Source: an uncultured Deinococcales bacterium
GTDB taxonomy: Bacteria; Deinococcota; Deinococci; Deinococcales; JAAFIG01
Assembly: GCA_964244895.1 (NCBI GenBank)
Contig: CAXTKV010000057.1
Location: 10,496-24,956 of the forward strand
DNA: 14,461 nt
Direction of reading: 5' to 3'
Positions within the stretch are counted from its first letter, which is position 1; each line of letters opens with the position of its first letter. This document shows positions 192 to 14,460 of the stretch, one piece after another. A program made the position numbers and the translations under genes. The notes below the pieces were generated by a model. It had not been told where the DNA came from. It made no database searches and worked only from the letters and a program-made list of their open reading frames with translations.

Positions 192-848
192 TCAAGAAAT
201 TGTCGATCCAGCGGGGCTGGCTGGAACCTGCAAAATGGCTTCCAGAATCGTCACGACCAGCACCGTGCCGGGGTCAATCTTGCCTTCGGTGCCGCCGACC
301 CAGTTGGCGCGCCCGATCATGGATTTGAGCGGGATGGCGGCGTCCCGCCCCCGACGGGCTGCATCCAGCATGGCCGCGCCCGCGTCTTCGAGGCTCGAGC
401 CCGACTGAATCGCGTCGCGGAAGGCTTCTGCGGCGGGATGGAGCGCGTCCACCAGGGTTTTGTCGCCGGGTTTGGCCTTGCCGCGCTCCTGAATGCCGGT
501 GTCTGCGGCCACCAGCATTCGCACCAGGGTTTCGGCATCCACGCTGGATGCGCCCACAGCTTCCTTGCCCGCGCGCATCAATGCGGTCGCGACCAGGGCT
601 CCCATCGTGCTGGGTGCGTGGCGGTTGTACGTCATGCCGACGCCCGCGAACCACTTGCCCAGGTCATCGCCCGGCGGGTTGGCGGCCATGTGATCCAGCA
701 CGCCCTGAGCACCTTTGGCGACGCTCAGTCCGGTGTCGCCATCGCCCATCGCGCCGTCGAGTTGGTTGAGCTGGTCGGTGATCTCGAGCAAGCGCCGCGC
801 GGCGCGCTCGATGGCGGATTGGAATTCGGCAGCCGCAATCGTGCTCAT
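192..848 (-). CDS. dhaL: Dihydroxyacetone kinase family, ADP-binding subunit L (DAK2 domain)
   Basis: LNQLDGAMGDGDTG, RGKAKPGDKTLVDAL, GRA and DPG motifs of DhaL/DAK2; its start overlaps the dhaK stop by 4 nt. Confidence 0.9.
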   Translation of the reverse strand: MSTIAAAEFQSAIERAARRLLEITDQLNQLDGAMGDGDTGLSVAKGAQGVLDHMAANPPGDDLGKWFAGVGMTYNRHAPSTMGALVATALMRAGKEAVGASSVDAETLVRMLVAADTGIQERGKAKPGDKTLVDALHPAAEAFRDAIQSGSSLEDAGAAMLDAARRGRDAAIPLKSMIGRANWVGGTEGKIDPGTVLVVTILEAILQVPASPAGSTIS

Positions 849-1840
849 ATCTTGAAGAACGGCGTGCTGGCCGGGTGATCGAGCAGGGTGCTCAGTTCAT
901 CGTCGAGCTTCATGACGGTGATGCTCGCGCCCGCCATCTCGAGGCTGGTGGCGTACTCACCGACGAAAGCCCGGTGAACGCCGACGCCCTGGGCTTCGAG
1001 CAGGGAATGGACGCGCCGATACAGGATGTACAGTTCCTCCGGCGGGGTCGCGCCGAGCCCGTTGACCATGACTGCGACCCGGTCGCCGCGCGTCAGGGGC
1101 ATGTCCGCCGCGATCGTCTCGAGGATCGTCAGCCCGATCTCGTCGGCGGTTTCCAGCGGGCCGTGGCGCACGCCGGGTTCGCCGTGGATGCCCATGCCGA
1201 GTTCCATCTCGCCGTCCGGCACGGTAAACGTCGGCTTGCCGACCGCGGGCAGGATGCACGGCCCCAGGGCCACGCCCATGGTGCGCATGTTGGCCAGCGC
1301 CTTGACGGTCGCGGCTTCGACTTCGTCCAGGCTGCCGCCCCGCTCCGCCTTCGCCCCCGCGATCTTGAAGGCGAACACCATGCCCGCCACGCCCCGGCGC
1401 GTCTGGGCGCGGTCTGCGGTGGCGCTCGCCACGTCGTCCTTGACCAGTACGGTGCGCACCGGGACGCCTTCCAGGTCGGCCATCTCGGTGGCCATGTCGA
1501 AGTTCATGACATCGCCTCCGTAGTTACCGTAGATGTACAGCACGCCCTGGCCGCCGTGAATGCGCTTGGTGACCTCGAGCATCTGATCGGCGCTCGGGGA
1601 CTGGAACACGTCACCGATGGCGCAACCGTCCAGCATGCCCTGCCCGACGTAGCCCAAAAAGACGGGCAGGTGGCCCGAGCCGCCGCCCGTGGCCAGCGCC
1701 ACCTTGCCCTGCATGGGCGCATCGGCGCGCACCAGACAGTGCAAGTCACCGACGTGCGCGACCATCTTCGGGTGCGCCATGTAGACGCCCTCGAGCATTT
1801 CAGAGACGAAATTCTTGGGGTCGTTCAAAATTTTTTTCAC
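845..1840 (-). CDS. dhaK: Dihydroxyacetone kinase family, substrate-binding subunit K (DAK1 domain)
   Basis: MKKILNDP N-terminus, GGGSGH, NYGGD.MNF, RRGVAG, GMGIHGEPG (substrate-binding His), VNGLGATP and TSLEMAG; GTG start preceded by GGAGGT. Confidence 0.93.
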   Translation of the reverse strand: MKKILNDPKNFVSEMLEGVYMAHPKMVAHVGDLHCLVRADAPMQGKVALATGGGSGHLPVFLGYVGQGMLDGCAIGDVFQSPSADQMLEVTKRIHGGQGVLYIYGNYGGDVMNFDMATEMADLEGVPVRTVLVKDDVASATADRAQTRRGVAGMVFAFKIAGAKAERGGSLDEVEAATVKALANMRTMGVALGPCILPAVGKPTFTVPDGEMELGMGIHGEPGVRHGPLETADEIGLTILETIAADMPLTRGDRVAVMVNGLGATPPEELYILYRRVHSLLEAQGVGVHRAFVGEYATSLEMAGASITVMKLDDELSTLLDHPASTPFFKI

Positions 1841-2352: not shown

Positions 2353-3363
2353 TTGCGGCAACTGCTGACGGACACCCACCTGCGCTTTCTGGTCGCCGCC
2401 AACCTCGCGATCCTGGTCGTGGCGTCTATCCTTTCAGGCGGAACCTTCCTCGATCCGTACAACTTTCAGAGCATGGCCACGCAATTGCCCGAAATCGGCC
2501 TGCTGGCCATCGCCATCGGCATCACGATGATCTCCGGCAACGGCGGCATCGACCTTTCCGTGGTCAGTATCGCCAACCTGTCCGCCATCGTCGCGGGATT
2601 GGTGATCCGCGCCACGCTCGGCACGGAAGGTCAGGGCGTGACCTTCACGCTGGTGTTCGTGGTGATCGCGCTGGTGGTCGGCACGCTCTGCGGGCTGATC
2701 AACGGCCTGCTCGTCTCGAGGGGCAACTTCCCGCCGATCCTCGCGACGCTCGGCACGCAGTTCGCATTCGTCGGGCTGGCGGTCGCGCTCTCGGGCGGGC
2801 CAGCGGTCGGATTGGGGTACGTCGAACCGTTCGTGGAAATTGGCAACGGCAACCTGCTGGGAATCCCGATCCCGTTTCTGATCTTCATCGCGGTCGTGCT
2901 GGTCTTTTCGTGGGCGCTGACCCGCACGCGCTTCGGCTTCCGGCTGTACCTGATGGGCACGAACGCCAAAGCTGCGCATTTCACCGGAATCGACAACAAA
3001 GCCGTGCTGCTGGTGACCTACACGCTTTCGGGCGTGGTGGCATCGATCGCTGGAACCGTGATCGCGTCGCGCGCCTCGAGCGTCAAATGGGATTACGGCA
3101 CGTCGTACCTGCTGATCGCGATCCTGATCGCCGTGATGGGCGGCGTCAACCCGTCCGGCGGGTACGGCAAGATCCTCGGACTGGTGCTCTCGAGCTTCGC
3201 CCTGCAGATGCTCTCGAGCACGCTGAACCTGCTGGGCACGTCAAATTTCTTGAAGGATTTCACCTGGGGGCTGCTGTTGCTCCTGTCGATCATGTTGACC
3301 AGCGCACGATTCAATCCCTTCCCGAAAACACCCACGCCACCCAAGGAGGTGAAGGCGAGCTAG
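2353..3363 (+). CDS. Sugar ABC transporter permease (CUT2, RbsC/LsrD-like)
   Basis: Hydrophobic protein with GGIDLSV, GLINGLLV, PILATLGT, TRFGFRLYLMGTN and GGVNPSGGYG. Start moved from the ORF-track 2218 to the in-frame TTG at 2353, which follows GAGGAG (2342-2347). Confidence 0.9.
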   Translation: MRQLLTDTHLRFLVAANLAILVVASILSGGTFLDPYNFQSMATQLPEIGLLAIAIGITMISGNGGIDLSVVSIANLSAIVAGLVIRATLGTEGQGVTFTLVFVVIALVVGTLCGLINGLLVSRGNFPPILATLGTQFAFVGLAVALSGGPAVGLGYVEPFVEIGNGNLLGIPIPFLIFIAVVLVFSWALTRTRFGFRLYLMGTNAKAAHFTGIDNKAVLLVTYTLSGVVASIAGTVIASRASSVKWDYGTSYLLIAILIAVMGGVNPSGGYGKILGLVLSSFALQMLSSTLNLLGTSNFLKDFTWGLLLLLSIMLTSARFNPFPKTPTPPKEVKAS

Positions 3364-3426
3364 AAGCAACACGCGGTTCTTGAGGTCTCGATAGCCAACG
3401 TTCCGAAGCCAATTCCAGGAGGTCGT

Positions 3427-4416
3427 ATGAAGAAAGCCATGATTCTCGGAGCTGGACTGCTGGTCGCCGCCGCCACGGGCGGAGTTCTGGCGCAGAAGAA
3501 ATACACGATCTACACGGTCGTCAAAATCACCGGCATCAACTGGTTCAACCGCATGGAAGAAGGCGTCAAGCAATACGCCAAGGACACCGGCAACAACGCC
3601 ACCCAGACCGGCCCCGCCCAGGCGGACGCCGCCCAGCAGTTGCAGGTCATCACCGACCTGGTGGCCAAGAAGCCAGACGCGCTGGCGGTCGTGCCATTCG
3701 ATCCGGCCACGCTGGAACCGATCTTCAAACAGGCGATCGATCGCGGCATTAAGGTCGTGACCCACGAAGCCGACAACCAGGTCAACACCCTCTACGACAT
3801 CGAAGCCTTCGACAACGTGGCCTTCGGCGCGAACCTGAACGCGCGCCTGGAAAAGTGCATGGGCGGCGCGGGCAAATGGACAGTCTTCGTCGGTAGCCTG
3901 GGATCGAAAACCCACAACCAGTGGGCGGACGGCGGCATCGAGAACGCCAAGAAGAACTCGAAGATGGTGCTGGTGGACGCCAAGCAAGAAACCAACGACG
4001 ACGCCGACAAAGCCTACGAGAAAGCCAAGGAAATCATCAAGAAGTACCCGGACATCAAGGGCTTCCAGGGCAGCGCCAGCACCGACGTGGCCGGCATCGG
4101 TCGCGCCGTGGAAGAGGCCGGGTTGAACGACAAGGTCTGCGTTTACGGCACCAGCCTGCCCTCGATCGCCGGTAAGTACATCGCCACCGGCGCGGTCGAC
4201 GGCATCGGTTTCTGGGACCCGAAGGACGCTGGCATCATCATGAACAAGGTCGCGCAGATGGTGCTCGAGGGCAAGACCGTCAAGGACGGCGCGGACCTGG
4301 GCATCAAGGGCTACAACAAGGTTTCCGTCACCAAGGGTAAGGGCGCTGGTTTCGTGATTCGCGGCAACGCCTTCGTGGACGTGGACAAGAGCAACTACAA
4401 GGAATTCCCGTTCTGA
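3427..4416 (+). CDS. Sugar ABC transporter substrate-binding protein (type 1 PBP, LsrB/AI-2-like subfamily)
   Basis: Sec signal peptide [58 protein letters not shown] and [17 protein letters not shown]. Confidence 0.9.
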
Positions 4417-4433
4417 TCTGAAGCAATAATGCA

Positions 4434-4486
4434 AACACCGTCCAGGACGCGATTCCTGAAGTGCGTCCCGGACGGTGTTCTCGAGA
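4434..4486. repeat. Paired palindromic element, copy 3 (25-bp spacing)
   Basis: AACACCGTCCAGGACGC (4434-4450) with GCGTCCCGGACGGTGTT (4463-4479), one mismatch, followed by CTCGAG. Confidence 0.9.
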
Positions 4487-4660
4487 AGCGGATCGAAGTG
4501 CAATGGTGCATTCCTCGGAACGCCGAAAGGTCAACTCGAGATTCGCCTTCAAAGCAACGTCAAGACGGTTCGAACGCGGAGCGGCGGACGCGCGCTCGAG
4601 CACCAGGTGAGTCCTGATGACTTGCACACCACACACAACGCGAAAACAAGAGAAAACCCA

Positions 4661-6208
4661 ATGACGACACCGACAAACGCGCACAACCTCAAACCCGGCG
4701 ACGAATTCCTGGCGCTCAACGACATCACCAAAACCTTCGGCGGCGTGCGCGCCCTGCGCGGCGTCAGCCTGAGCATCCGCGCGGGCGAGATCTACCACTT
4801 GCTGGGCGAGAACGGCTCAGGGAAATCGACGCTAATCAAGATCGTCTCCGGCGCGCAACCGCCCGACAGCGGCACGATGACGGTGCGCGGCAAGGAATAC
4901 AGGAAGCTCGAGGCGCTCGAATCGCTCGAGGCGGGCATCGAGACGGTCTACCAGGACTTGAGCCTGTTCCCGAACCTGAGCGTCGCGGAAAACGTGGCGC
5001 TGACCGCGCAGCTCGTGCAGAACGACGGGCGTCTGGGGCGAATGCTCAACTGGAAGAAACTCCAGGAGACCGCCAGCAGCGCCCTGGAACGCGTCGGGCT
5101 CGAGTCCACGACGGAATTTCTGGATCAAAAAGTCGAAAGCCTGCCGATCGCCGTGCGGCAACTCGTGGCCATCGCCCGTGGGCTGGCGACCAGCGCGTCA
5201 TTGGTGATCATGGACGAACCCACGGCGGCGCTGACGCAAAAAGAAGTCGAGAACCTGCTCTCGATCATCTCGAGCCTGCGCGCGGACGGGGTGAGCGTGC
5301 TGTTCGTCAGCCACAAACTCGACGAGGTTTTCCGCATCGGCGGCAACGTGATCGTGCTGCGCGACGGACTGAAAGTCGCGGATGGCAAGCTGAGCGATTA
5401 CAGCCAGGAGCAAATCAGCTTCCTGATGACCGGCAAGCACCTGGACAAAACCAGCTACCGCACCGGCAAGCCCGGCGCACAGGCGCTCCTCGAGATCAAA
5501 GGGCTCTCGCGCAGCGGGGCATTTTCAGGCGTGAGCTTCAACCTGCACCGGGGCGAGGTGCTGGGCATCACGGGCTTGCTGGATTCCGGGCGCAACGAAC
5601 TGGCGCTGGCGATTTCTGGCGTGCAACCCGCAGACGGCGGCCAGATCGTGCTGGACGGTCAAACCATCAGCGTCCAGAACCCGCGCGATGGCATCCGGCT
5701 CGGCATCGGCTACGTGCCCGAAGACCGACTGACCGAAGGTTTATTCCTGCAAAAACCGATCCGCGAGAACATCGTGGTCAGCATCCTGGATCGATTGATG
5801 CGCGGCAACCAGATCGACTTCCAAAAAAGCACCCTCGCCACCGAAACACTGGTCAAGGATTTGCAGATCGCCACGCCGAACGTGATGCTGCCCGCCCAGA
5901 GCCTGTCCGGTGGCAACCAGCAACGCGTGATGGTCGCGCGCTGGCTGGCGATCAACCCGAAAGTGCTGCTGCTGCACGGCCCGACCATGGGCGTGGATGT
6001 CGGCAGCAAGGACGCTCTCTACAGGATCGTGCAAGATTTAGCGCAGAAGGGATTGGGCGTGATCATCATTTCCGACGACCTGCCGGAATTGTTGATGAAC
6101 TGCGATTCGATTCACGTCATGAAAAAAGGCCGCATCGCCCGAACCTTTCAGGTCGAAGGGCTCGAGGAATCCGTGTTGTCTCACGAACTCCTGACCGAGG
6201 CCGCATGA
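4661..6208 (+). CDS. Sugar ABC transporter ATP-binding protein (two fused ABC domains, RbsA/MglA type)
   Basis: Walker A GENGSGKST, Q-loop VYQD, IMDEPT, VSH, YVPEDR and LSGGNQQ. Start taken as ATG 4661 because the ORF-track extension to 4475 begins inside a repeat. Confidence 0.93.
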   Translation: MTTPTNAHNLKPGDEFLALNDITKTFGGVRALRGVSLSIRAGEIYHLLGENGSGKSTLIKIVSGAQPPDSGTMTVRGKEYRKLEALESLEAGIETVYQDLSLFPNLSVAENVALTAQLVQNDGRLGRMLNWKKLQETASSALERVGLESTTEFLDQKVESLPIAVRQLVAIARGLATSASLVIMDEPTAALTQKEVENLLSIISSLRADGVSVLFVSHKLDEVFRIGGNVIVLRDGLKVADGKLSDYSQEQISFLMTGKHLDKTSYRTGKPGAQALLEIKGLSRSGAFSGVSFNLHRGEVLGITGLLDSGRNELALAISGVQPADGGQIVLDGQTISVQNPRDGIRLGIGYVPEDRLTEGLFLQKPIRENIVVSILDRLMRGNQIDFQKSTLATETLVKDLQIATPNVMLPAQSLSGGNQQRVMVARWLAINPKVLLLHGPTMGVDVGSKDALYRIVQDLAQKGLGVIIISDDLPELLMNCDSIHVMKKGRIARTFQVEGLEESVLSHELLTEAA

Positions 6209-6221
6209 GCGCCGCAGCACC

Positions 6222-6270
6222 CGAGAAGACCGTCCTGGACGCGAAATATAAAGTGTGTCCAGGACGGTGT
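6222..6270. repeat. Paired palindromic element, copy 4 (25-bp spacing)
   Basis: ACCGTCCTGGAC (6229-6240) with GTCCAGGACGGT (6257-6268), a perfect 12-bp inverted repeat. Confidence 0.9.
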
Positions 6271-6329
6271 CCCATGCAACTTCCAGAATCAATCCAGCAT
6301 CTTCAAATTGACTCGACTCGAGGTCAGAC

Positions 6330-7343
6330 GTGTCCGTGATCGCACCGACGCAACCCAGAACCCCGATCCGCGCCTGGCGGTCGTTTACCCGCCGACCCGA
6401 GTTCATCACGCTCGCCCTGATCGTGGTGTTTTCCCTGGCGGTCGGGATCATCAACCCGAATTTTTTCTCGCCGAAGACCGTGACGGACACGCTGCGCGCT
6501 TCCATTACCACGGGCATTTTCGCGTTGGGCGTGCTGCTGGTGCTGGCGGCGGGCGGTATCGACGTGTCGTTCACAGCCATCGCGATTTTCGCGCTCTATT
6601 CCACTACCCGGCTGATGCTGGCAGTCTGGCCGGGCGCGCCGTACCCGGTGATGATCCTGTTGTGCCTGGGCATCGGCTTGCTGATGGGCATGCTGAACGG
6701 CTTCCTGGTGTGGCGCTTCGCCGTGCCGTCCTTGATCGTGACCATCGGCACGCAGTATTTGTTCAGCGGCTTTCTGAAAGCCTTCATCGGCAGCAGGCAC
6801 ATCATGGACATCCCCGCCGCGATGGATTCGGCGGGCACGACCGCGCTCTTTCAGACCGTGACCGCCGACGGCACGCGCATCGCCGTACCGATACTGGTGC
6901 TGGTGCTGGTGCTGGCGATTATCGTGACGTGGTTCATCTTGAACCGCACGCTGCTGGGCCGCGCCGTCTACGCCGTCGGCGGCAGCATCCCGATCGCGGA
7001 ACGGTTGGGGTTCAGCGTGCGCACCGTGATGCTGTTCGTGTTCGGTTACGCGGGCATGTTGGCCGGATTGGGCGGACTGATGCACGGGTCGTTGAACCGT
7101 CAGGCCAACCCGTCCGATCTGGTTGGCTCTGAACTGAACGTGATCGCGGCGGTCGTGCTGGGCGGTGCGCGCATCACGGGCGGCACGGGCACGGTGCTGG
7201 GCACGCTGTTGGGCGTGGTGCTGATCGAGTTGCTGACCAACAACCTGATCCTGATGGGCGTGCCTTCCACCTGGCAAAAAGTGGTGATCGGCGTGATTAT
7301 TCTGGCGGCCAGCGGCGTGTTCTCGAGGCGCGGTACAGCGTGA
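6330..7343 (+). CDS. Sugar ABC transporter permease (CUT2)
   Basis: GGIDVSF, GMLNGFLV, PSLIVTIGT, TLLGRAVYAVGG and ELNVIAAVVLGGARITGGTGTVLGT; GAGG upstream of the GTG start. Confidence 0.92.
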   Translation: MSVIAPTQPRTPIRAWRSFTRRPEFITLALIVVFSLAVGIINPNFFSPKTVTDTLRASITTGIFALGVLLVLAAGGIDVSFTAIAIFALYSTTRLMLAVWPGAPYPVMILLCLGIGLLMGMLNGFLVWRFAVPSLIVTIGTQYLFSGFLKAFIGSRHIMDIPAAMDSAGTTALFQTVTADGTRIAVPILVLVLVLAIIVTWFILNRTLLGRAVYAVGGSIPIAERLGFSVRTVMLFVFGYAGMLAGLGGLMHGSLNRQANPSDLVGSELNVIAAVVLGGARITGGTGTVLGTLLGVVLIELLTNNLILMGVPSTWQKVVIGVIILAASGVFSRRGTA

Positions 7344-7346
7344 TGT

Positions 7347-7462
7347 ACCGATCTGGACGGGTTTCTCGGGCATTCGCAAAAAGATCGTCCCAGACGGCTT
7401 TCCTTGCATTGAACGCCCTCGCTCGAGCACGCGCATCACTCAATCTGGACGGTGCTCTCGAG
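7347..7462. repeat. Palindromic element cluster, copy 5 (three degenerate units)
   Basis: ACCGATCTGGACGGGTTTCTCG, AAGATCGTCCCAGACGGCTTT and CTGGACGGTGCTCTCGAG; centres at 7354, 7391 and 7446. Confidence 0.7.
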
Positions 7463-7476
7463 GGAAGTGAACGGGC

Positions 7477-8727
7477 TTGAGTTACCGAATTCTCGACGCT
7501 GAGACCGTTCTCGAGTACATGCAGTCGCACCCGAAAGCACGGGATGTGATCGACGTTGACGCCCCCCTTCAGAGCGCGGAACTTTCGGATGGCAACCTCA
7601 ATTTCGTGTTTCGGGTTTTTGAAAAAGACCGTCCAGAACGCAGCATCCTGGTCAAGCAGGGCGTTCCTTACTTGCGCGTGGCGGGTGAATCCTGGCCGCT
7701 CTCCCCTGCCCGTGCGGGCTTCGAAGCCCGCGCGCTCGAGCTTCAGCACCGTTTCGCGCCGGGGCTGGTGCCGACACCGTACTGGTTCGACGAGACCATG
7801 TGCGTCAACGCAATGGAAGATTTGCGCCACCACAACGTCATGCGCAAACCGATGGTGGATCGTGTGCGGTTCGAGCATCTCGGCGCGACGATTGGAGACT
7901 TTCTCTCGAGAACGCTGTTCGGCACGTCGGATTTTGGGCTCGAGGCGAAGGAGAAAAAAATGCTTCAGACCCGATTTGCCAACGCGGAACTCTGCGAGAT
8001 CACCGAGGATTTGATTTTCACCGAACCGTTCGAGCCCGCGCTGCTGGGAGGCAAATCCAACCGCAACCGCTTCGATCCTGGAATCAAAAACACGCTCGAG
8101 ATGCTCCAAGCTGATCTCGAGGTCAGGGCGCAAGTCTCGAGCCTCAAGCACCGCTTCATGACGGTGGCGCAGGCGCTCTTGCACGGCGACCTGCACACGG
8201 GTTCGATCATGGCTTCCGACCCGGACGAGAAAGGTGCATCGGATATTCGGGTGATCGACCCGGAGTTCGCGTTCTTCGGCCCGGCCGGATTCGACGTGGG
8301 GTTGTTCGTGGCGAATCTTTTTTTGAACGCCAGCGCTCAAGCCGGTCACGCGCCTGATGAAGACTCGAGAACCGCGTACCGGACGTATTTGTTTGGTCAG
8401 GCCAGGGCCTGCTGGACGGTCTTCGAGGGCGGTTTCCGCGAGCGTCTCCACTCGTCCAACAGCGTTTCGTGGCGATCCCGAGCGTTCCGTGACGCGTTCA
8501 TGCTCGAGGTGCTGCAGGACGCGGCGGGCTTCGCGGGCTGCGAGATGATCCGCCGAAGCGTCGGTTTCGCGCACGTTCTCGACGTGGACAGCATCGCGGA
8601 TGACGCGAAACGCGCCGAAGTGCTCGAGATGAATCTACGCGTAGGTTCAGAACTGATTCGGTCGCACCGAACCATCTCGAGTTTCAATGAAATCGAGGGT
8701 ATCGTAAAAAGCGTGATTCGCGCATGA
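7477..8727 (+). CDS. mtnK: S-methyl-5-thioribose / 5-deoxyribose kinase
   Basis: DGNLNFVF, VKQ..PYLR..GESWPL, LCEITEDLIFTEPF, LLHGDLHTGSIM, IDPEFAFFGP.GFDVG and GFAGCEMIRR motifs. Confidence 0.95.
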   Translation: MSYRILDAETVLEYMQSHPKARDVIDVDAPLQSAELSDGNLNFVFRVFEKDRPERSILVKQGVPYLRVAGESWPLSPARAGFEARALELQHRFAPGLVPTPYWFDETMCVNAMEDLRHHNVMRKPMVDRVRFEHLGATIGDFLSRTLFGTSDFGLEAKEKKMLQTRFANAELCEITEDLIFTEPFEPALLGGKSNRNRFDPGIKNTLEMLQADLEVRAQVSSLKHRFMTVAQALLHGDLHTGSIMASDPDEKGASDIRVIDPEFAFFGPAGFDVGLFVANLFLNASAQAGHAPDEDSRTAYRTYLFGQARACWTVFEGGFRERLHSSNSVSWRSRAFRDAFMLEVLQDAAGFAGCEMIRRSVGFAHVLDVDSIADDAKRAEVLEMNLRVGSELIRSHRTISSFNEIEGIVKSVIRA

Positions 8728-9785
8728 TTCAGCCCGTCCCGACCGTGGTTTTCGAGAACGACACCGTGAGCTTGCTCGATCAGACCTTGCTGCCGCTCGA
8801 GCGCAAAATGATCGAGATTCCGGACGCCGAAAGTATGTGGGAAGCCATTCAGGTTTTGCGGGTGCGCGGCGCTCCGGCCATCGGCGTGGCGGCGGGGTTC
8901 GGGCTGTGGCTGGGCGTCAAGGGCGTGCCGGATGACGCACCTCGAGAAACCTTCCTGGCGAGGCTCGAGGAGGTTCGGGCGTACCTGGCGACCTCGCGCC
9001 CGACCGCCGTGAACCTGTTCTGGGCGCTGGATCGGGTGGTCGCCGGGACTCGAGCATCGGTTGGAACGGTCGCAGGAGAACTCAAGAAGACCGTCCTGCA
9101 CGAAGCGCTGGCCATTAAAGCCAGTGAGGAAGCCACGTCGCTCGCCATCGGAAAGTACGGCGTGCCGCTCCTGAACGGTGTTCAGAACGTGCTAACGCAC
9201 TGCAACGCGGGTTCGCTTGCCACGACGGGCATCGGTACGGCGCTCGCCCCGATTTACGCGGCGGCGGCGCAGGGGCAGATCGTGCACGTCTACGCCGACG
9301 AGACGCGCCCGTTGCTGCAAGGCTCCCGACTGACCGCCTGGGAATTGCAGCAGGCCGGGCTGCCCGTGACGGTCATCACCGACAACATGGCGGCGACCGT
9401 CATGCGCGACAAGAACATCGGCGCGGTCATCGTCGGATGCGACCGCGTGGCGGCCAACGGGGACTTTGCCAACAAGATCGGCACCTACGGCGTGGCCATA
9501 CTGGCTCGAGAACACGGCATTCCTTTTTACGTGGCCGCACCGTTCAGCACGATCGATTTCGGCACGCCGGACGGGTCGCGGATCGAGATCGAGCAGCGCA
9601 GCGCGTCGGAAGTCACGAGTTTCGGCTCGAGGCGCACCGCGCCGGATGGCGTGGACGCGTTCAACCCGGCGTTCGACGTGACCCCCGCGAAGTACGTCAC
9701 GGCCTTCATCACCGACAGGGGCGTCATTGAGGCCCCGTACACGGAAAATCTGGCGCGGGCTCGAGAGGCGTTCGAGGTCGGCTGA
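8724..9785 (+). CDS. mtnA: S-methyl-5-thioribose-1-phosphate (5-deoxyribose-1-phosphate) isomerase
   Basis: LLDQTLLP, VRGAPAIG, RPTAVNL, THCNAGSLAT, DETRPLLQGSRLTAWEL, ANKIGTY and NPAFDVTP; ATGA overlap with the mtnK stop. Confidence 0.96.
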   Translation: MIQPVPTVVFENDTVSLLDQTLLPLERKMIEIPDAESMWEAIQVLRVRGAPAIGVAAGFGLWLGVKGVPDDAPRETFLARLEEVRAYLATSRPTAVNLFWALDRVVAGTRASVGTVAGELKKTVLHEALAIKASEEATSLAIGKYGVPLLNGVQNVLTHCNAGSLATTGIGTALAPIYAAAAQGQIVHVYADETRPLLQGSRLTAWELQQAGLPVTVITDNMAATVMRDKNIGAVIVGCDRVAANGDFANKIGTYGVAILAREHGIPFYVAAPFSTIDFGTPDGSRIEIEQRSASEVTSFGSRRTAPDGVDAFNPAFDVTPAKYVTAFITDRGVIEAPYTENLARAREAFEVG

Positions 9786-9797
9786 ACTCGAGCAGAA

Positions 9798-9851
9798 CGA
9801 GAACACCGTCCAGCACGCGAATACAAAACACCGTCCTGGACGGTGTTCTCG
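9798..9851. repeat. Paired palindromic element, copy 6 (25-bp spacing)
   Basis: 20-bp arms CGAGAACACCGTCCAGCACG and CGTCCTGGACGGTGTTCTCG with one mismatch; the second unit is the perfect palindrome AACACCGTCC-T-GGACGGTGTT (9827-9847). Confidence 0.92.
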
Positions 9852-9864
9852 GAAAGGTGAGCGA

Positions 9865-11850
9865 ATGGAAAGCCTCTGGGACGACGCACAAGCAGCCAAA
9901 TGCACGACGGAACTCGAGCTGCGGGCGTACACGTCCAGGTTGCTGGGCGCTCGAGAAGACCTGGTGCTGGCGGGCGGTGGCAACACGTCGGTCAAGCTGA
10001 GCATGACGGACGTGTTCGGACAGGATCTCGCGGGCATGTGGGTCAAGGGCAGCGGCGGCGCGCTGGTCAGCATCACCCAAAAAGGTTTCGCACCCGTCAG
10101 GTTGGATCATCTGCTGGCGCTCTCGAACCTCGAGAAGCTGTCCGACGCGGACATGATGCGCGAGTACAGCTTGAGCCTGCTCGACCCGGACGCGCCCTTC
10201 CCGAGCGTCGAGGCGATCCTGCACGCGCTCCTGCCGCACACGTGGGTGGATCACACGCACGCCGACGCCCTAGAAACCATCATGGACACGCCCTCCGGCG
10301 AGGCTCGCGTGCGCGAACTGTACGGCGAGACCGTCGTGTACGTGCCCTACGTCATGCCGGGATTCGATCTGGCGCTGGCCTGCAAAAAGGCCTACGCGGA
10401 GCAGGCGTCGCATAAAACCATCGGCATGGTGCTGCTGCACCACGGCATTTTCTCGTGGGGCGAGACCGCGCGGGAATCCTACGAACGCATGATCGATCTG
10501 GTCACGCGAGCTGAGCAGTACCTCGAGGTGCGTGGCGCGTGGCATCTCGAAATCCAGAAGCCCGAGGCGGCGAAACCGCTCGGTGCCGACATCGCGCGGC
10601 TCCGGCACGAGATATCCAGCGTCGCGGGCGCACCGATGATCGTGCAACGGTTGGAGGACGATCTGAGCATCGCCTTCTCGAGACGAGCCGATATTTCAGA
10701 CGTGGCGACGCGCGGCCCCGCAACCGTGGATCACGTCTCCTGGACGAAACACCAGCCGTTGATCGGGCGAGACGTTCGGGCCTACGCCGACGCCTACCGC
10801 GCGTATTTCGAGCGCCACGCATCCACGGCCCGCACCGGTTCGACCCTGGCCGAATTGAGCATGATCGACCCTGCGCCGAGGGTCGTGATCGACGCGCGGC
10901 TGGGCGTGCTGACGGCGGGACGCACCGTGCCCGACGCGCGCACGACGGGCAAGATTTACGCGCAGACCATCCAGATGATCGAGCGCGCCGAACGACTGGA
11001 ATCGTGGAACACGCTGCCCGAAGGACAATTCTTCGAGATCGAATACTGGGAATTGCAGCAGGCCAAATTCAAGAAAGGCCCGAAGCTCCCGGACTTTTCC
11101 GGCGAGGTGATGCTGGTCACGGGCGCGGCCTCCGGCATCGGCAGGGCGTGCGCGGAAGCGTTTCTGGCTCGAGGCGCCGCCGTCGTCGGGCTCGACCTGA
11201 ACGCCAGCATCACGACCACGTTTGAGCGACCCGAGTACCTGGGCATCCAGTGCGACGTGACCGACGAGAACGCGATTCAGTCCGCGCTCGAGCGAACCGC
11301 GCAACGCTACGGCGGGCTGGACATGCTGGTGCTGAACGCCGGAATTTTCCCCTCGAGCGAGATGATTTCTTCGCTCGACCTCGAGCGTTGGCAGCGCGTC
11401 ATGCGCGTCAACCTGGACGCCAACCTGAGCCTGATGCGAGAAGCGCACGGGTTGCTGAAGCTCGCGCCGAACGGCGGGCGAGTCGTGGTGATCGCGTCTA
11501 AGAACGTGCCCGCACCGGGGCCTGGAGCGGCGGCCTACAGCGCATCCAAGGCCGCACTGACCCAACTGGCTCGGGTTGCCGCACTGGAATGGGGCGCGGA
11601 CGGGATTCGCGTCAACGTGCTGCACCCGAACGCCGTGTTCGACACGGGCATCTGGACGGAAGACGTGATTTCAAAACGCGCCGAGAGCTACAAGCTGAGC
11701 GTCGAGGAATACAAGAAGAACAACGTGCTGCACACGGAAGTCTCGAGCGCGAACGTCGCGGAATTGGCAGCGGTGATGTGCGGGATGGCGTTTGCGAAGA
11801 CGACGGGGGCGCAACTCCCGATTGACGGCGGGAACGACAGGGTCATTTAG
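9865..11850 (+). CDS. Bifunctional class II aldolase / short-chain dehydrogenase (RhaD-SDR, RhaEW-like fusion)
   Basis: N-terminal GGGNTSVK, WVKGSG, PSVEAILH, VDHTHAD and HHGIFSWG; linker EYWELQQAK; C-terminal SDR motifs TGAASGIG, NAG and YSASK. Start taken as ATG 9865 after GAAAGGTGA because the ORF-track extension crosses the mtnA end and a repeat. Confidence 0.9.
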   Translation: MESLWDDAQAAKCTTELELRAYTSRLLGAREDLVLAGGGNTSVKLSMTDVFGQDLAGMWVKGSGGALVSITQKGFAPVRLDHLLALSNLEKLSDADMMREYSLSLLDPDAPFPSVEAILHALLPHTWVDHTHADALETIMDTPSGEARVRELYGETVVYVPYVMPGFDLALACKKAYAEQASHKTIGMVLLHHGIFSWGETARESYERMIDLVTRAEQYLEVRGAWHLEIQKPEAAKPLGADIARLRHEISSVAGAPMIVQRLEDDLSIAFSRRADISDVATRGPATVDHVSWTKHQPLIGRDVRAYADAYRAYFERHASTARTGSTLAELSMIDPAPRVVIDARLGVLTAGRTVPDARTTGKIYAQTIQMIERAERLESWNTLPEGQFFEIEYWELQQAKFKKGPKLPDFSGEVMLVTGAASGIGRACAEAFLARGAAVVGLDLNASITTTFERPEYLGIQCDVTDENAIQSALERTAQRYGGLDMLVLNAGIFPSSEMISSLDLERWQRVMRVNLDANLSLMREAHGLLKLAPNGGRVVVIASKNVPAPGPGAAAYSASKAALTQLARVAALEWGADGIRVNVLHPNAVFDTGIWTEDVISKRAESYKLSVEEYKKNNVLHTEVSSANVAELAAVMCGMAFAKTTGAQLPIDGGNDRVI

Positions 11851-11851
11851 T

Positions 11852-11900
11852 ACCGTCCAGCACACGTTCTCAAATCCGTGTCCTGGACGGTGCTCTCGAG
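11852..11900. repeat. Paired palindromic element, copy 7 (25-bp spacing)
   Basis: ACCGTCCAGCACACG (11852-11866) with CGTGTCCTGGACGGT (11877-11891), followed by GCTCTCGAG. Confidence 0.9.
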
Positions 11901-11952: not shown

Positions 11953-13188
11953 ATGATCTCGAAAGAAGATATTCTGGCGCTCGACCAGTCCGATCCGCTC
12001 GCAGGTGTCCGCGATGAATTCAGCGTGCCGGACGGACTGGTGTACCTGGACGGGAACTCGTTGGGCGTGCTGCCCAAGCGCGTTCCTTCACGCCTCGAGC
12101 GAGCGATCAGGCAGGAATGGGGCACCGACCTGATCCGGTCGTGGAACAAAAACGATTGGATCGGTTTGCCCGCGCGGGTCGGCGCACAGATTGCGCGGCT
12201 AATCGGTGCAAACGCAGATGAGGTGATCGCGGCGGATTCGACCAGCGTGAACCTGTTCAAAATCCTGCTGGCCGCGCTGAAATTGCGCCCCGACCGGCGC
12301 GTGATCGTCAGCGACATCGATAATTTCCCAACCGATCTGTACATGGCGCAGGGCGTGAACGCGCTCTTGGATGATCGGCTCGAGTTGCGGTTCGTCAAAC
12401 GAGATCAGCTGATGACTGCGATGGACTCGAGTGTGGCGGTCGTGATGCTGACGCAAGTCGATTACCGCACGGGCGAGTTGCTGGACATGAAGGGCATCAC
12501 GGACGCGGCGCACGCGAACGGCGCGTTGATGATCTGGGATCTGGCGCACAGCGCGGGCGCGTTCCCGGTGCACCTGAACGCGTGCGACGTGGATTTCGCG
12601 GTTGGGTGCGGTTACAAGTACCTGAACGGCGGCCCCGGCGCTCCTGCGTTCTTGTTCGTTGCGCATGAACACCAAACCCAGGCCGTGCCGGTGCTGTCGG
12701 GCTGGATGGGGCACAAGAACCCGTTCGAGTTCACGCCGTGGTACGCGCCCGCAGAGGGTGTCGGGCGGTTAACGGCGGGCACGCCGAGCGTGCTGGGACT
12801 GACCGCGCTCGAGGCGGCGCTCGAGGTCTTCGATGGGATCGACATGAACCTGGTGCGCCAGAAATCGCTCGGGTTGACGGGCGCGTTCATCGCGTTGATG
12901 GAACCGTTGCGCCAGGAATTTGGGTTCGAGTTGGTGACGCCAAAGGATGGCGCGCTGCGCGGTTCGCAGGTCAGTTACGCGCACGATCAGGGCTACGCGA
13001 TCATGCAGGCATTGATCGCGGACGGTGTGATCGGTGATTTTCGTGCGCCGAACATCGTGCGCTTCGGGTTCACACCGTTGTACACGCGTTACGCGGATGT
13101 TCAGGAGGCTGTGGATCGGTTAGCGCGGGTGATGCGAGAAAAACGTTGGAATCTCGAGCAGTACAGGGAACGCGCCGCCGTGACCTGA
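11953..13188 (+). CDS. kynU: Kynureninase (PLP-dependent)
   Basis: YLDGNSLG, DSTSVNLFK, NFPTDLY, WDLAHSAGA, GCGYKYLNGGPGAP (PLP lysine), RGSQVS and GVIGDFR. Confidence 0.95.
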   Translation: MISKEDILALDQSDPLAGVRDEFSVPDGLVYLDGNSLGVLPKRVPSRLERAIRQEWGTDLIRSWNKNDWIGLPARVGAQIARLIGANADEVIAADSTSVNLFKILLAALKLRPDRRVIVSDIDNFPTDLYMAQGVNALLDDRLELRFVKRDQLMTAMDSSVAVVMLTQVDYRTGELLDMKGITDAAHANGALMIWDLAHSAGAFPVHLNACDVDFAVGCGYKYLNGGPGAPAFLFVAHEHQTQAVPVLSGWMGHKNPFEFTPWYAPAEGVGRLTAGTPSVLGLTALEAALEVFDGIDMNLVRQKSLGLTGAFIALMEPLRQEFGFELVTPKDGALRGSQVSYAHDQGYAIMQALIADGVIGDFRAPNIVRFGFTPLYTRYADVQEAVDRLARVMREKRWNLEQYRERAAVT

Positions 13189-13230
13189 ATGAAAGTAGGC
13201 GTCTCGAGGATTGGCTTTGTCGAGATTCGC

Positions 13231-13650
13231 TTATTGATCCAGCACCTTCGACCAGATCGCTGGGCTGGCCGGGTTGGCGCTGGCGGTGATTTTCAGGATC
13301 GTGTGGGCGTCGGGGTACTCGAGCAGACGCGTGAATTCGTGAGGTGCCATGACGCATTCCTTGAAGTTGATCGCGCCTTTGGCGGAAAGTCCTTCCAGCA
13401 AATCCTCGAGCGCTCGCTTGCCGCTCGCGCCGTAGCGCGGGCCGAAGGCGTCCTCGGAGAGCGCGATGCGTTCGCCGCTTTTGATCAGCACGGCGTAACG
13501 GGCGGTATCGCGGCGATCCTGCCAGTCGGAAAGGATCGTGACGATGGCGTGTTTCAGGTCGAAGCCCTTGACGGCGGATTGCAGCGCCGACAGGGTTTCG
13601 AGCGGTGAGCCTTGCAGGCCGATGGGGTCGAGGTTTGGGGCTTCGGTCAT
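13231..13650 (-). CDS. Conserved hypothetical protein, probably DUF3197-like (Deinococcus-Thermus)
   Basis: Clean 139-aa ORF with its own leaderless -10. DPIGLQGSPLETL, SDWQD.R..ARYA and AFGPRYG..G..AL resemble DUF3197 proteins as recalled; not verified by search. Confidence 0.7.
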   Translation of the reverse strand: MTEAPNLDPIGLQGSPLETLSALQSAVKGFDLKHAIVTILSDWQDRRDTARYAVLIKSGERIALSEDAFGPRYGASGKRALEDLLEGLSAKGAINFKECVMAPHEFTRLLEYPDAHTILKITASANPASPAIWSKVLDQ

Positions 13651-13656
13651 GGCTCG

Positions 13657-13662
13657 AGCCTA
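13657..13662 (-). promoter_or_regulatory. Leaderless -10 promoter element for the 13231..13650 gene
   Basis: The minus strand reads TAGGCT-CGAGCC-ATG, a TANNNT hexamer 6 nt before the start codon. Confidence 0.55.
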
Positions 13663-13697
13663 CGGCGTCCGGCGCAGCTGTGGCAAGAGCGTGACGG

Positions 13698-13750
13698 GAA
13701 GACCGTCCAGCACGCGAATTCTTTGATCTCGAGAGCACCGTCTGGGACGC
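13698..13750. repeat. Paired palindromic element, copy 8 (35-bp spacing)
   Basis: AAGACCGTCCAGCACGCGAATT (13699-13720) is identical over 22 bp to 123-144; the second unit is CTCGAGAGCACCGTCTGGGACGC. Confidence 0.88.
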
Positions 13751-13782
13751 TCTACTGGAAATGATTCAGGTTTGAGGGCGGG

Positions 13783-14460
13783 TCATTTGAAAATCAGCGC
13801 GCCGCCAGCCCGTCCCGCGAACATCGGCACGATGGTCGAGCGGGAGATATCCGCGCTGAAAGCGATGTCGGTTTCCAGGCCGACCGCGATGATCAATTCA
13901 GCCGCCCTGGACATCCGCAGAGGTTCCAAGGGGTCGGCGATCTGGCGGCGCACGGTCAACGCCACGCGAGCGCCATCGTCCAGATCCCAGTCGCCCATGG
14001 CGGACAGGTATTCGGCCAGCACGCCCGCCGTGTAGACATCGTCCAGCCCGACCCGTCCGTCCGATCCGGCGCACAGAATGGCGACTTCCTCGCTCGAGAC
14101 CTCTCGGGCTTTGCGGGCGGCGGCGTGGGCGTTTCTGAGGCACGCCAGGATCACATTCTGGCCGGATGCGCAGGCGGTCTCGGCGGCTCGCGTGCCGTTG
14201 GTGGTGCTCATCACGACCGTCTGGGCGTCGTAGCGACGATCCAGGGCCTGCACGGGGGAATTGCCCAGGTCGAAATCCTCTGGCGGCAAGCAGTTGCGTT
14301 CGCCCGCCAGCACGATGCCCTCGGCGCGGAATGCCCGAGCCGTCTCGAGGTCGGGGGTCAGGTACAGCGCGTCAGCACCATTTTCCAGGAACGATAAGGC
14401 CGTGGTCGTGGCGCGCAGCACGTCGATCGGGGTGCGCCCGTCGAGCAGCTGGCCGCTGAC
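13783..14460 (-). CDS. comB: 2-phosphosulfolactate phosphatase family protein (5' end outside the window)
   Basis: IDVLRATTT, LAGER, FDLGNSP, STTNGT, ILCAG and LDD...AG motifs; the frame stays open to the window edge. Confidence 0.88.
   Translation of the reverse strand, partial: VSGQLLDGRTPIDVLRATTTALSFLENGADALYLTPDLETARAFRAEGIVLAGERNCLPPEDFDLGNSPVQALDRRYDAQTVVMSTTNGTRAAETACASGQNVILACLRNAHAAARKAREVSSEEVAILCAGSDGRVGLDDVYTAGVLAEYLSAMGDWDLDDGARVALTVRRQIADPLEPLRMSRAAELIIAVGLETDIAFSADISRSTIVPMFAGRAGGALIFK

Follow-up and report, generated by a model that had tools for sequence, protein, structure and literature searches.

All cells that use SAM make MTA and 5'-deoxyadenosine, and many genomes hold only the first two genes of their salvage. 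The closest described systems to the operon analysed here are the DHAP shunts, exemplified by DrdK-DrdI-DrdA from Bacillus thuringiensis, which salvages 5-deoxyribose (PMC6079011), and by MtnK-MtnA-Ald2, together with a permease, from ExPEC strains of E. coli (PMC10986504, PMC12632272). Transporter genes are already known in such clusters (four clusters in Fig. 1b of PMC6079011). RhaEW (YuxG), in turn, couples aldol cleavage to the NAD+-dependent oxidation of the aldehyde (PMC3870299). On the side of uptake, the AauA and Rbl systems import D-ribulose (PMC12307932, PDB 9I1M). Finally, Rapp et al. described cyanobacteria with mtnP and mtnA and without MtnB or Ald2, which "must employ another pathway" (PMC8102628).

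The window—the whole stretch of 14,461 nucleotides analysed here—holds an operon that is likely a new variant of the DHAP-shunt pathway. It does not represent a new kind of system, because its chemistry recombines known steps. As in the DHAP shunts, the kinase and the isomerase belong to the same families, share one operon, and precede a class II aldolase domain. However, the aldolase of those shunts is a stand-alone FucA-like protein, whereas here it is part of a 661-residue RhaEW-like fusion with a short-chain dehydrogenase (SDR), and the operon is further distinguished by an AauA-subfamily importer of the CUT2 ABC type and an attached DhaK-DhaL pair. E. coli leaves the aldehyde product to general dehydrogenases. 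The features of the locus are as follows.

192..848, minus strand: DhaL-type nucleotide-binding kinase subunit (Dak2; PF02734, TIGR02365 below cut-off)
845..1840, minus strand: DhaK-type ketose-binding kinase subunit (Dak1), transcribed divergently to the importer (profile matches and motif)
2353..3363, plus strand: CUT2 ABC permease 1 (PF02653; TTG start behind a GAGGAG site)
3427..4416, plus strand: sugar-binding protein of the AauA/5BRA subfamily (PF13407; PDB matches)
4437..4476, no strand: copy of an intergenic palindromic repeat (genome-wide family, not operon-specific)
about 4661..6208, plus strand: two-domain CUT2 ABC ATPase (PF00005 twice; AraG/XylG/RbsA-like, under each curated cut-off)
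6330..7343, plus strand: CUT2 ABC permease 2 (PF02653)
7477..8727, plus strand: MtnK/DrdK-type 5-methylthioribose/5-deoxyribose kinase (TIGR01767, 442 bits, cut-off 275)
8724..9785, plus strand: MtnA/DrdI-type 5-substituted ribose-1-phosphate isomerase (TIGR00512, 420 bits, cut-off 279)
9865..11850, plus strand: class II aldolase/classical SDR fusion, 661 residues, RhaEW paralog (PF00596 and SDR; NF006196, PRK08324.2-4)

Open reading frame and profile checks found all seven plus-strand genes intact and co-directional, as a preliminary description of this DNA had stated. The start of mtnA overlaps the stop of mtnK, and the start of permease 1 agrees with those of its relatives. The core unit of that description stands, but its gene list left out the divergent dhaK-dhaL pair (1840..192), which is part of the conserved unit. 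The kynureninase gene downstream was rejected as a member, adjoining the importer in one of 14 loci, the window's own. Further copies of the palindromic repeat lie at 126-175, 6229-6268, 9805-9844, and 11852-11891, and a search for a RAYT/Y1 transposase for this family found none. No known RNA, riboswitches included, was matched in Rfam across the window, and eight aligned dhaK-permease spacers, inspected for a common operator, gave zero invariant columns. Both mtnK and mtnA are single-copy in the genome, and the HGD, DPEF, and twin-Arg motifs of MtnK align to B. subtilis MtnK (2olc). In the MtnK pocket, the Leu of B. subtilis is replaced by F364 in 14 of 17 rows; since Arabidopsis has Val there, the position is uninformative.

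The fusion protein is a full-length member of NF006196 (956 bits, cut-off 831, profile positions 1-657), a family whose name, "bifunctional aldolase/short-chain dehydrogenase", is purely descriptive and carries no assigned substrate. It conserves GGGNT, E116, H130/H132/H193, TGAASGIG, D444, and S545-Y558-K562, with E116 and the three histidines identical in all 118 aligned members. A structure model (pLDDT 87) and a fold search confirmed the two domains and did not indicate the substrate; the closest protein in both fold (TM 0.94 over the target) and sequence (E 5e-42) is 3m4r, the uncharacterised N-terminal domain of a Thermoplasma acidophilum protein. With respect to the stand-alone type, no FucA-type family matched the fusion, and a domain sequence search did not find the DrdA/FucA structures.

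The fusion shares its two-domain architecture and catalytic motifs with RhaEW, to which it is 33% identical, and the coupling of cleavage to oxidation is likely common to both. These similarities would also suit a redundant rhamnulose-1-phosphate aldolase/lactaldehyde dehydrogenase, a reading that is hardly credible here, as several lines of evidence oppose it. The fusion scores below the cut-off of TIGR02632, the RhaD-SDR family (421 bits against 568), while the same genome encodes, in a separate rhaI-rhaEW-rhaB cluster on another contig (C174), a RhaEW reaching 865 bits. The 17 RhaEW-type proteins cluster in a clade of their own, separate from the group of the window (FastTree support 1.0 and 0.999), and all 16 of their loci fetched hold rhaI and/or rhaB, with mtnA, mtnK, or mtnP in none. 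Conversely, neither rhaI nor rhaB was found in the window, and rha genes occur in 0 of 80 metagenome loci of its clade. A rhamnose role is rejected on the evidence of the host's own RhaEW, the separate clade, and the context of the RhaEW-type loci. The preliminary description had considered that the fusion might act only on rhamnulose-1-phosphate with rhaA/rhaB elsewhere; the rha genes elsewhere come with a RhaEW of their own. Rhamnulose-1-phosphate has the other configuration at C4 than dRu1P, and therefore the clade of the window must differ from RhaEW in stereochemistry if it is active on dRu1P, a demand that weighs against such activity. dRu1P has the (3R,4R) configuration (PMC6079011).

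No family match to mtnB, mtnC, mtnD, mtnW, or mtnX appeared among the 12 window proteins scanned, in agreement with the preliminary description, and the recommended check of the whole genome (91% complete) found no mtnB, mtnC, or RuBisCO-like gene, on which ground classical or universal methionine salvage was rejected. The only ARD match above the Pfam cut-off (PF03079, contig C46) is partial and lies in a 124-residue cupin with no NCBIfam match. An MtnN-type nucleosidase gene is present, and the only stand-alone class II aldolase-family protein found is AraD, adjoining araA. MtnB has the same fold as the N-terminal domain of the fusion, most fusion carriers are without mtnB, and plant DEP1 has both activities; these observations favour a reading in which this domain works as a dehydratase of the MtnB kind and the resulting diketo-phosphate is reduced by the SDR domain, in an unknown branch of methionine salvage or detoxification. 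Such a role is very unlikely, as the fusion has no match to TIGR03328, the characterised protein closest to it is an aldolase/dehydrogenase, and the search for an mtnC or RuBisCO-like partner found none, with only the partial cupin for ARD.

The association of the fusion with mtnA, whose conservation in other genomes the preliminary description had left to be established, is kept in several phyla and is far broader than the operon of the window, the usual partner being the MtnP phosphorylase, not MtnK. Within the clade, mtnA or mtnP flanks the fusion in 47 of 80 metagenome loci and mtnA in 6 of 28 GTDB loci, the flanks of the remaining 33 and 22 loci, many of them short, holding no mtn gene. 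The mtn-linked members are spread over several subclades with differing gene orders. Raw counts overstate independence, because the link shrinks after clustering (26 of 62 clusters at 80% identity, 6 of 24 at 70%). Among 161 genomes sampled from the order Burkholderiales, mtnA occurs in 21 of 21 fusion carriers versus 67 of 140 non-carriers, with the fusion within about 2 kb of mtnA in 19 of the 21, and mtnB occurs in a single genome, not a carrier. Of 181 cyanobacterial genomes sampled, 24 carry the fusion; 23 of these hold mtnA, next to the fusion in only two. Cyanobacterial carriers are not depleted in mtnB (3/24 versus 25/157, p=1.0; top 17, p=0.14). Other class II aldolase-family genes are found in 4 of 24 carriers versus 80 of 157 other genomes, and in none of the 17 top-scoring carriers, a soft depletion because many of these genes encode PRK06208 adducin-like proteins of unknown role and the genomes are related. 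Close outgroup fusions belong to operons for sugar catabolism, alongside an FGGY kinase or glycerol-3-phosphate dehydrogenases. A literature search found no report of the fusion-mtnA link, though North et al. 2020 or its supplements may mention this fusion.

The tie to mtnA/mtnP, the separate RhaEW, and the failure to find mtnB, mtnC, or RuBisCO-like genes argue that the fusion likely replaces Ald2/DrdA and oxidises the aldehyde; its role as their stand-in after MtnK and MtnA, as the preliminary description proposed, is well supported by gene context. The reading favoured here, held with somewhat more confidence than doubt, is a DHAP-shunt variant in which the fusion would cleave 5-deoxy- or 5-methylthio-ribulose-1-phosphate and oxidise the aldehyde within the same polypeptide. 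The free 5-deoxyribose or methylthioribose would be released by the host's own MtnN-type nucleosidase, or else enter through the importer, for which the chances of these being the main ligands are about even. To judge from the B. thuringiensis and E. coli orthologues, MtnK would phosphorylate C1 and MtnA would isomerise the product to the ribulose-1-phosphate. The metal-dependent aldolase domain, whose catalytic residues are conserved, would then cleave C3-C4 of a substrate suggested by gene context, giving DHAP and a two-carbon aldehyde, and the SDR domain would use NAD+ to form acetate or methylthioacetate, oxidation, as in RhaEW, being modestly favoured over reduction to the alcohol. If true, the fusion supplies a dedicated enzyme for the aldehyde, and a likely rhamnose-type mis-annotation is corrected.

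In Deinococcota, the gene order of the window is found again in G011 and G015. G285 and G311 hold an identical set of genes, G017 has a rearranged cluster, and G016 keeps mtnK-mtnA-fusion plus the last permease; because of this recurrence, the cluster is not due to chance. A fusion orthologue occurs in 11 of 19 genomes of the window's family, including all 10 with mtnA and all nine with mtnK. The role of the importer is less certain than that of the fusion, since the importer travels with dhaK-dhaL at least as faithfully as with mtnK: in the eight loci from a binding-protein search, dhaK-dhaL adjoins it in eight, mtnK in seven, and the fusion in two, and a DhaL gene adjoins it in 11 of 14 Deinococcota loci. 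Outside this phylum, no mtn gene lies next to the importer subfamily in nine annotated loci, nor in the 80 metagenome fusion loci, and dhaK-dhaL adjoins it in four of the nine, which are proteobacterial. Sinorhizobium meliloti pSymB has the same divergent dhaKL/permease-binding protein-ATPase-permease layout and no mtn gene; a literature search on this importer found no paper. This layout, together with G329, where importer and dhaK-dhaL are present and mtnA and an NF006196-type fusion were not found, and G018, where 2.6 Mb separate the fusion and the importer, fits an independent importer-dhaK-dhaL module for dihydroxyacetone or a tetrulose, a mere neighbour of mtnK-mtnA-fusion in Deinococcota, with the shunt disposing of internal SAM by-products only. 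This is unlikely, since mtnK follows the importer in three Deinococcota families with differing gene orders, including three genomes of genus g8 with mtnA on a different contig, and the retention of a free-sugar kinase beside an importer suggests that the kinase's substrate is taken up. Such a module leaves room for the aldolase role and competes only with the claim of scavenging. That claim of the preliminary description, an importer dedicated to SAM by-product sugars, is weaker than its inference on the fusion: the loci elsewhere, the company of dhaK-dhaL, and G329 speak against it, and the interpretation as a whole is supported in part.

To judge from its partners, the importer carries a ketose or some other small pentose more probably than MTR. 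Its binding protein belongs to the same subfamily as AauA/Rbl (PDB 5bra, 3d02, and 9i1m, E 4e-78 to 3e-55), and of the D-ribulose ligand residues K37, W43, E118, H167, E196, and S223 of AauA (PMC12307932), five are identical (K33, W39, E114, H163, S218) and E196 is replaced by D191. The same pattern holds in all 14 Deinococcota binding proteins; a deoC-linked group has H to Q. Entry of a ketose through the importer is therefore plausible from these residues. In AauA/Rbl systems, FGGY kinases (RblK, AraB) feed the pentose phosphate pathway, whereas the kinases of the window are MtnK and DhaK-DhaL, a profile scan finding no FGGY kinase there. DhaK-DhaL could provide a second entry, phosphorylating imported D-ribulose or 5-deoxyribulose at C1 for the same aldolase, although the odds of this are somewhat below even. 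Unlike PTS-dependent DhaKLM, which has DhaM and a KNYxGD motif, the pair has GNYGGD (YGNYGGD versus IKNYTGD in E. coli DhaK, whose Lys is absent), and no DhaM-type (EIIA-man) phosphodonor domain, PF03610, was found in the genome; contig C44 encodes another DhaK, of the conventional kind (VKNYSGD, TIGR02363, 461 bits).

The whole cluster might also be a ketopentose or pentose scavenging unit, in which D-ribulose or a related ketose enters through the importer, DhaK-DhaL forms D-ribulose-1-phosphate, and the fusion yields DHAP and glycolaldehyde, oxidised to glycolate, with MtnK-MtnA as a side entry. The ligand residues, the constancy of dhaK-dhaL, and the two kinds of DhaK speak for it, as do the promiscuity of DrdA for aldehydes, a ketose 3-epimerase-like gene in three of 14 importer loci, and, in G018, a gene resembling D-lyxose isomerase. 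It is nevertheless fairly improbable, given that those residues do not tell one small furanose from another, that mtnK adjoins the importer in seven of the same eight loci, that no DhaM-type phosphate supplier was found, and that fusions outside Deinococcota pair with mtnA/mtnP/apt and with dhaK in 0 of 80 loci; DrdK, moreover, is inactive on ribose and 5-deoxyribulose (PMC6079011).

Beyond the favoured DHAP-shunt variant, a broader proposal is tentative. NF006196 fusions may constitute a widespread, so far unrecognised third terminal module of SAM by-product metabolism, cleaving any 5-substituted D-ribulose-1-phosphate and oxidising the aldehyde in one protein, in bacteria with mtnP or mtnK plus mtnA and without mtnB or ald2. 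The Deinococcota cluster would then be a two-entry funnel, with a DhaM-independent split DhaK-DhaL acting next to MtnK-MtnA as a novel 1-kinase for (5-deoxy)ribulose, and the cell would feed on the aldose and ketose waste sugars of neighbours. The clade offers a concrete candidate to fill part of the gap noted by Rapp et al., being carried by 24/181 cyanobacterial and 21/161 Burkholderiales-order genomes sampled. Five positions that are otherwise conserved are substituted in the fusion of the window's lineage (H36A, W65G, P288V, I292S, and R293W), changes common to 6-7 of 118 sequences, and its pocket may therefore differ from that of the rest of the clade.

The preliminary description had placed the importer, mtnK, mtnA and the fusion in this order on a single strand, and the arrangement is real, with coordinates and profile matches in agreement. 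The operon, located on contig C57 of a host assembly of 5.1 Mb (91% complete), is likely a variant of a known pathway.

Features of the window (coordinates, strand, identity)
848-192, minus: dhaL, divergent from the importer
1840-845, minus: dhaK, divergent from the importer
2353-3363, plus: ABC permease of the importer
3427-4416, plus: sugar-binding protein of the importer
about 4661-6208, plus: ABC ATPase of the importer
6330-7343, plus: second ABC permease of the importer
7477-8727, plus: mtnK, curated cut-off passed
8724-9785, plus: mtnA, curated cut-off passed
9865-11850, plus: aldolase-SDR fusion, 661 aa; NF006196 score 956 (cut-off 831), TIGR02632 score 421 (cut-off 568, failed)
11953-13188, plus: kynureninase
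126-175, 4437-4476, 6229-6268, 9805-9844 and 11852-11891: intergenic copies of a palindromic repeat

The kynureninase, DUF3197 and 2-phosphosulfolactate phosphatase genes at 11953-14421 are ordinary neighbours whose presence beside the cluster is not conserved. The palindromic repeat occurs genome-wide in 920 hairpin-pattern copies that fall into two length classes, 40 and 50 bp (about 10 bp apart). Its exact half-site is present 1976 times, where about 5 occurrences would be expected; a Y1/RAYT transposase for this family was looked for and not found.

An alternative already considered in the preliminary description is that the fusion represents a rhamnose enzyme whose rha genes lie elsewhere. 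RhaEW converts rhamnulose-1-phosphate into DHAP and lactate in an NAD+-dependent manner, and its orthologues are always found within rha loci, according to Rodionova et al. (PMC3870299). The host genome holds three PF00596 matches: the window fusion, AraD adjoining araA, and a second fusion on contig C174, which lies between rhaI and rhaB, is 33% identical to the window fusion, and scores 865 bits with TIGR02632. Sixteen Deinococcota loci of the RhaEW type, chosen by hand among the matches of lower score, were compared: rhaI and/or rhaB are present in all 16, and mtnA, mtnK or mtnP in none. In a FastTree tree of a reduced set, the RhaEW-type proteins also separate as a clade from the group of the window fusion (support values 1.0 and 0.999). 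With the TIGR02632 cut-off failed, the rha cluster on C174 provided with its own RhaEW, and the two proteins in distinct clades, a rhamnose role is rejected.

The proposed mechanism, which we consider rather probable, is that MtnK and MtnA would make a 5-substituted D-ribulose-1-phosphate, which the fusion would cleave into DHAP and an aldehyde, the latter being oxidised by its SDR domain. Genes, family membership, catalytic residues and context are direct observations in this scheme, in which the substrate, its C4 stereochemistry and the redox direction are predicted. The intact fusion keeps the GGGNT loop, E116, the metal triad H130/H132/H193, the SDR motif TGAASGIG, D444 and S545-Y558-K562, and E116, H130/H132/H193, D444, Y558 and K562 are invariant in all 118 aligned members. 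In SDR enzymes, acidic residues at the place of D444 go with a preference for NAD(H), and the residue in the fusion indicates that NAD(H) would be preferred. The structure model (mean pLDDT 87) has an uncharacterised Thermoplasma domain (3m4r) as its top structural match. At five positions that are conserved elsewhere, substitutions (H36A, W65G, P288V, I292S, and R293W) co-occur in the window's lineage only (L046-L051); they are common to genus g4 and the window, are absent from genomes G285 and G311 despite the same gene set, and possibly alter the substrate pocket.

The host genome yielded no other candidate for the third step. The preliminary description had left open whether further mtn genes lie outside the window; neither mtnB over the cut-off, nor mtnC, nor a RuBisCO-like protein was found in this 91% complete genome, and the ARD match is partial, within a small cupin. 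Both mtnK and mtnA are present in one copy each. Seven genes belong to the nucleoside phosphorylase family, none of which matches an MtnP model at E 1e-25; one of them is a predicted MtnN-type nucleosidase, through which the cell's own MTA and 5'-deoxyadenosine can supply MtnK with substrates.

In several phyla, the NF006196 fusion clade is linked to mtnA. The preliminary description had named a lack of conservation in other genomes as a refutation of its reading; the link with mtnA recurs in GTDB, metagenome and Burkholderiales-order loci. The GTDB scan gave 39 loci, reduced to 28 by dropping 11 SDR-only matches; mtnA flanks the fusion in six of these, three with mtnP-apt and one with mtnK. 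Among the best 80 of 596 metagenome matches, the flanks hold mtnA in 44, mtnP in 14, apt in 15, and mtnA or mtnP in 47, and mtnK, rhaI, rhaB, araD, dhaK, and the binding protein or permeases of the window importer in none. These loci are related: clustering at 80% identity leaves the mtn link in 26 of 62 clusters, and clustering at 70% in 6 of 24; the linked fusions in the clustered set are spread over several subclades, with differing gene orders. Of 161 Burkholderiales-order genomes (the order of G020; locus L008), 21 carry the fusion over the cut-off, and mtnA is present in 21/21 carriers versus 67/140 others (Fisher p 1e-6, inflated by kinship), within about 2 kb of the fusion in 19/21; mtnB occurs once, in a non-carrier. 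In the window's family, the fusion orthologue is found in 11 of 19 genomes, among which are each of the 10 mtnA genomes and each of the 9 mtnK genomes, and the eight genomes of genus g2 lack all three genes. The outgroup fusions from Rhizobium and Shinella, however, are located in other sugar operons, which calls for caution against over-reading the link.

In cyanobacteria (the class of G019), 24 of 181 genomes carry the fusion, 23 of them with mtnA, adjacent in only two. Another class II aldolase-family gene is present in 4/24 carriers versus 80/157 non-carriers (0/17 top-scoring carriers), and mtnB depletion among carriers is not seen (3/24 versus 25/157). The related subfamily NF006192 lies beside mtnP-mtnA in G098 (L151:1494-7100), a small cyanobacterial genome with mtnB as well, and a FucA-like gene adjoins mtnA in other cyanobacteria, as expected of interchangeable third steps. 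In the cyanobacterium G082 (L141:4066-5806), the gene directly downstream of mtnA encodes a divergent class II aldolase-family protein of 203 aa that matches no NCBIfam model; this gene may be another candidate third step, and about 20 weak PF00596 matches of similar span may belong to the same family. On a Halobacteriovoraceae contig (L029:4958-5869), an adenosine deaminase-like gene overlaps the fusion stop codon, another nucleoside link.

Both the DHAP shunt and clusters with linked transporter genes are already described (PMC6079011, PMC10986504, and PMC12632272). Among papers judged by title and start of abstract, none assigning the fusion to the shunt was found, and the passages on fusions in PMC6079011 and PMC12632272 do not assign an aldolase-SDR fusion to it. 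PMC8102628 names a cyanobacterial gap in the salvage of SAM by-products, which the NF006196 clade may partly fill.

The importer is a story partly separate from the fusion-mtnA link. Its binding protein has named homologues from Meiothermus and Deinococcus, which places the host in Deinococcota. This protein was found in 8 of 201 Deinococcota genomes besides the host; within 9 kb, these loci hold dhaK-dhaL in 8, mtnK in 7, mtnA in 4 and the fusion in 2. The proposed dedication of the importer to SAM by-product sugars is less certain than the role of the fusion. Adding 6 family loci fetched via the fusion or mtnK gives 14 Deinococcota loci, with mtnK in 13, dhaKL in 11, mtnA in 10 and the fusion in 6, some contigs ending early. 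In three genus-g8 genomes, the importer is grouped with dhaKL and mtnK; their mtnA lies on a different contig, and stand-alone class II genes are found at other sites. G329 carries the importer with dhaKL, and a search for mtnA found none.

Regarding the ligand, AauA (9I1M) is among the top three closest solved structures of the binding protein. AauA binds D-ribulose at 2 uM through K37, W43, E118, H167, E196, and S223, as stated in PMC12307932; the window protein has K33, W39, E114, H163, D191, and S218, differing in D191 for E196. All 14 Deinococcota binding proteins have the same six residues as the window protein, and the deoC-linked proteins have Gln in place of His. The window DhaK has GNYGGD where that of E. 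coli has KNYTGD, a second, conventional DhaK is encoded on contig C44, and a DhaM-type domain was searched for in the host genome and not found. The erythrulose kinases LerK and DerK are DhaK-family proteins. They are mentioned in PMC13753588. For the importer and DhaKL, we infer a ketose larger than dihydroxyacetone, the best guesses being D-ribulose or 5-deoxyribulose, and DhaKL would act as a second entry. DrdK cannot use 5-deoxyribulose (PMC6079011), so that it would be complemented by a kinase acting at C1 of the ketose.

Homologues also occur in 185 plasmid records. The nine sampled hold dhaK/dhaL (four), deoC with a ribokinase (three), an FGGY kinase (one) or a sugar kinase only (one), and an annotated mtn gene in none. 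Sinorhizobium meliloti pSymB (L155:2897-12628) shows dhaKL in the same divergent layout as the window; papers naming the substrate of its importer were not found. In this record and L175-L177, the importer is accompanied by two DhaK/DhaL sets and no mtn genes; in three of these records, one DhaK forms a single protein with a sugar-binding regulator.

Other layouts are found in Deinococcota. In G018 (L152:8145-19998), importer-mtnK-mtnA is followed by ketose 3-epimerase-like and D-lyxose isomerase-like genes and dhaK-dhaL, with deoC upstream and the fusion 2.6 Mb distant. G387 and G350 (L166:12482-17348, L167) hold importer-dhaK-dhaL-(tartronate semialdehyde reductase-like)-mtnA-mtnK without a nearby fusion, which makes another variant whose oxidoreductase is a different one. 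Finally, 7 of the 14 Deinococcota loci have an aldo-keto reductase gene close to the importer (e.g., L160:10523-11605), with a 69% orthologue on contig C75 of the host genome.
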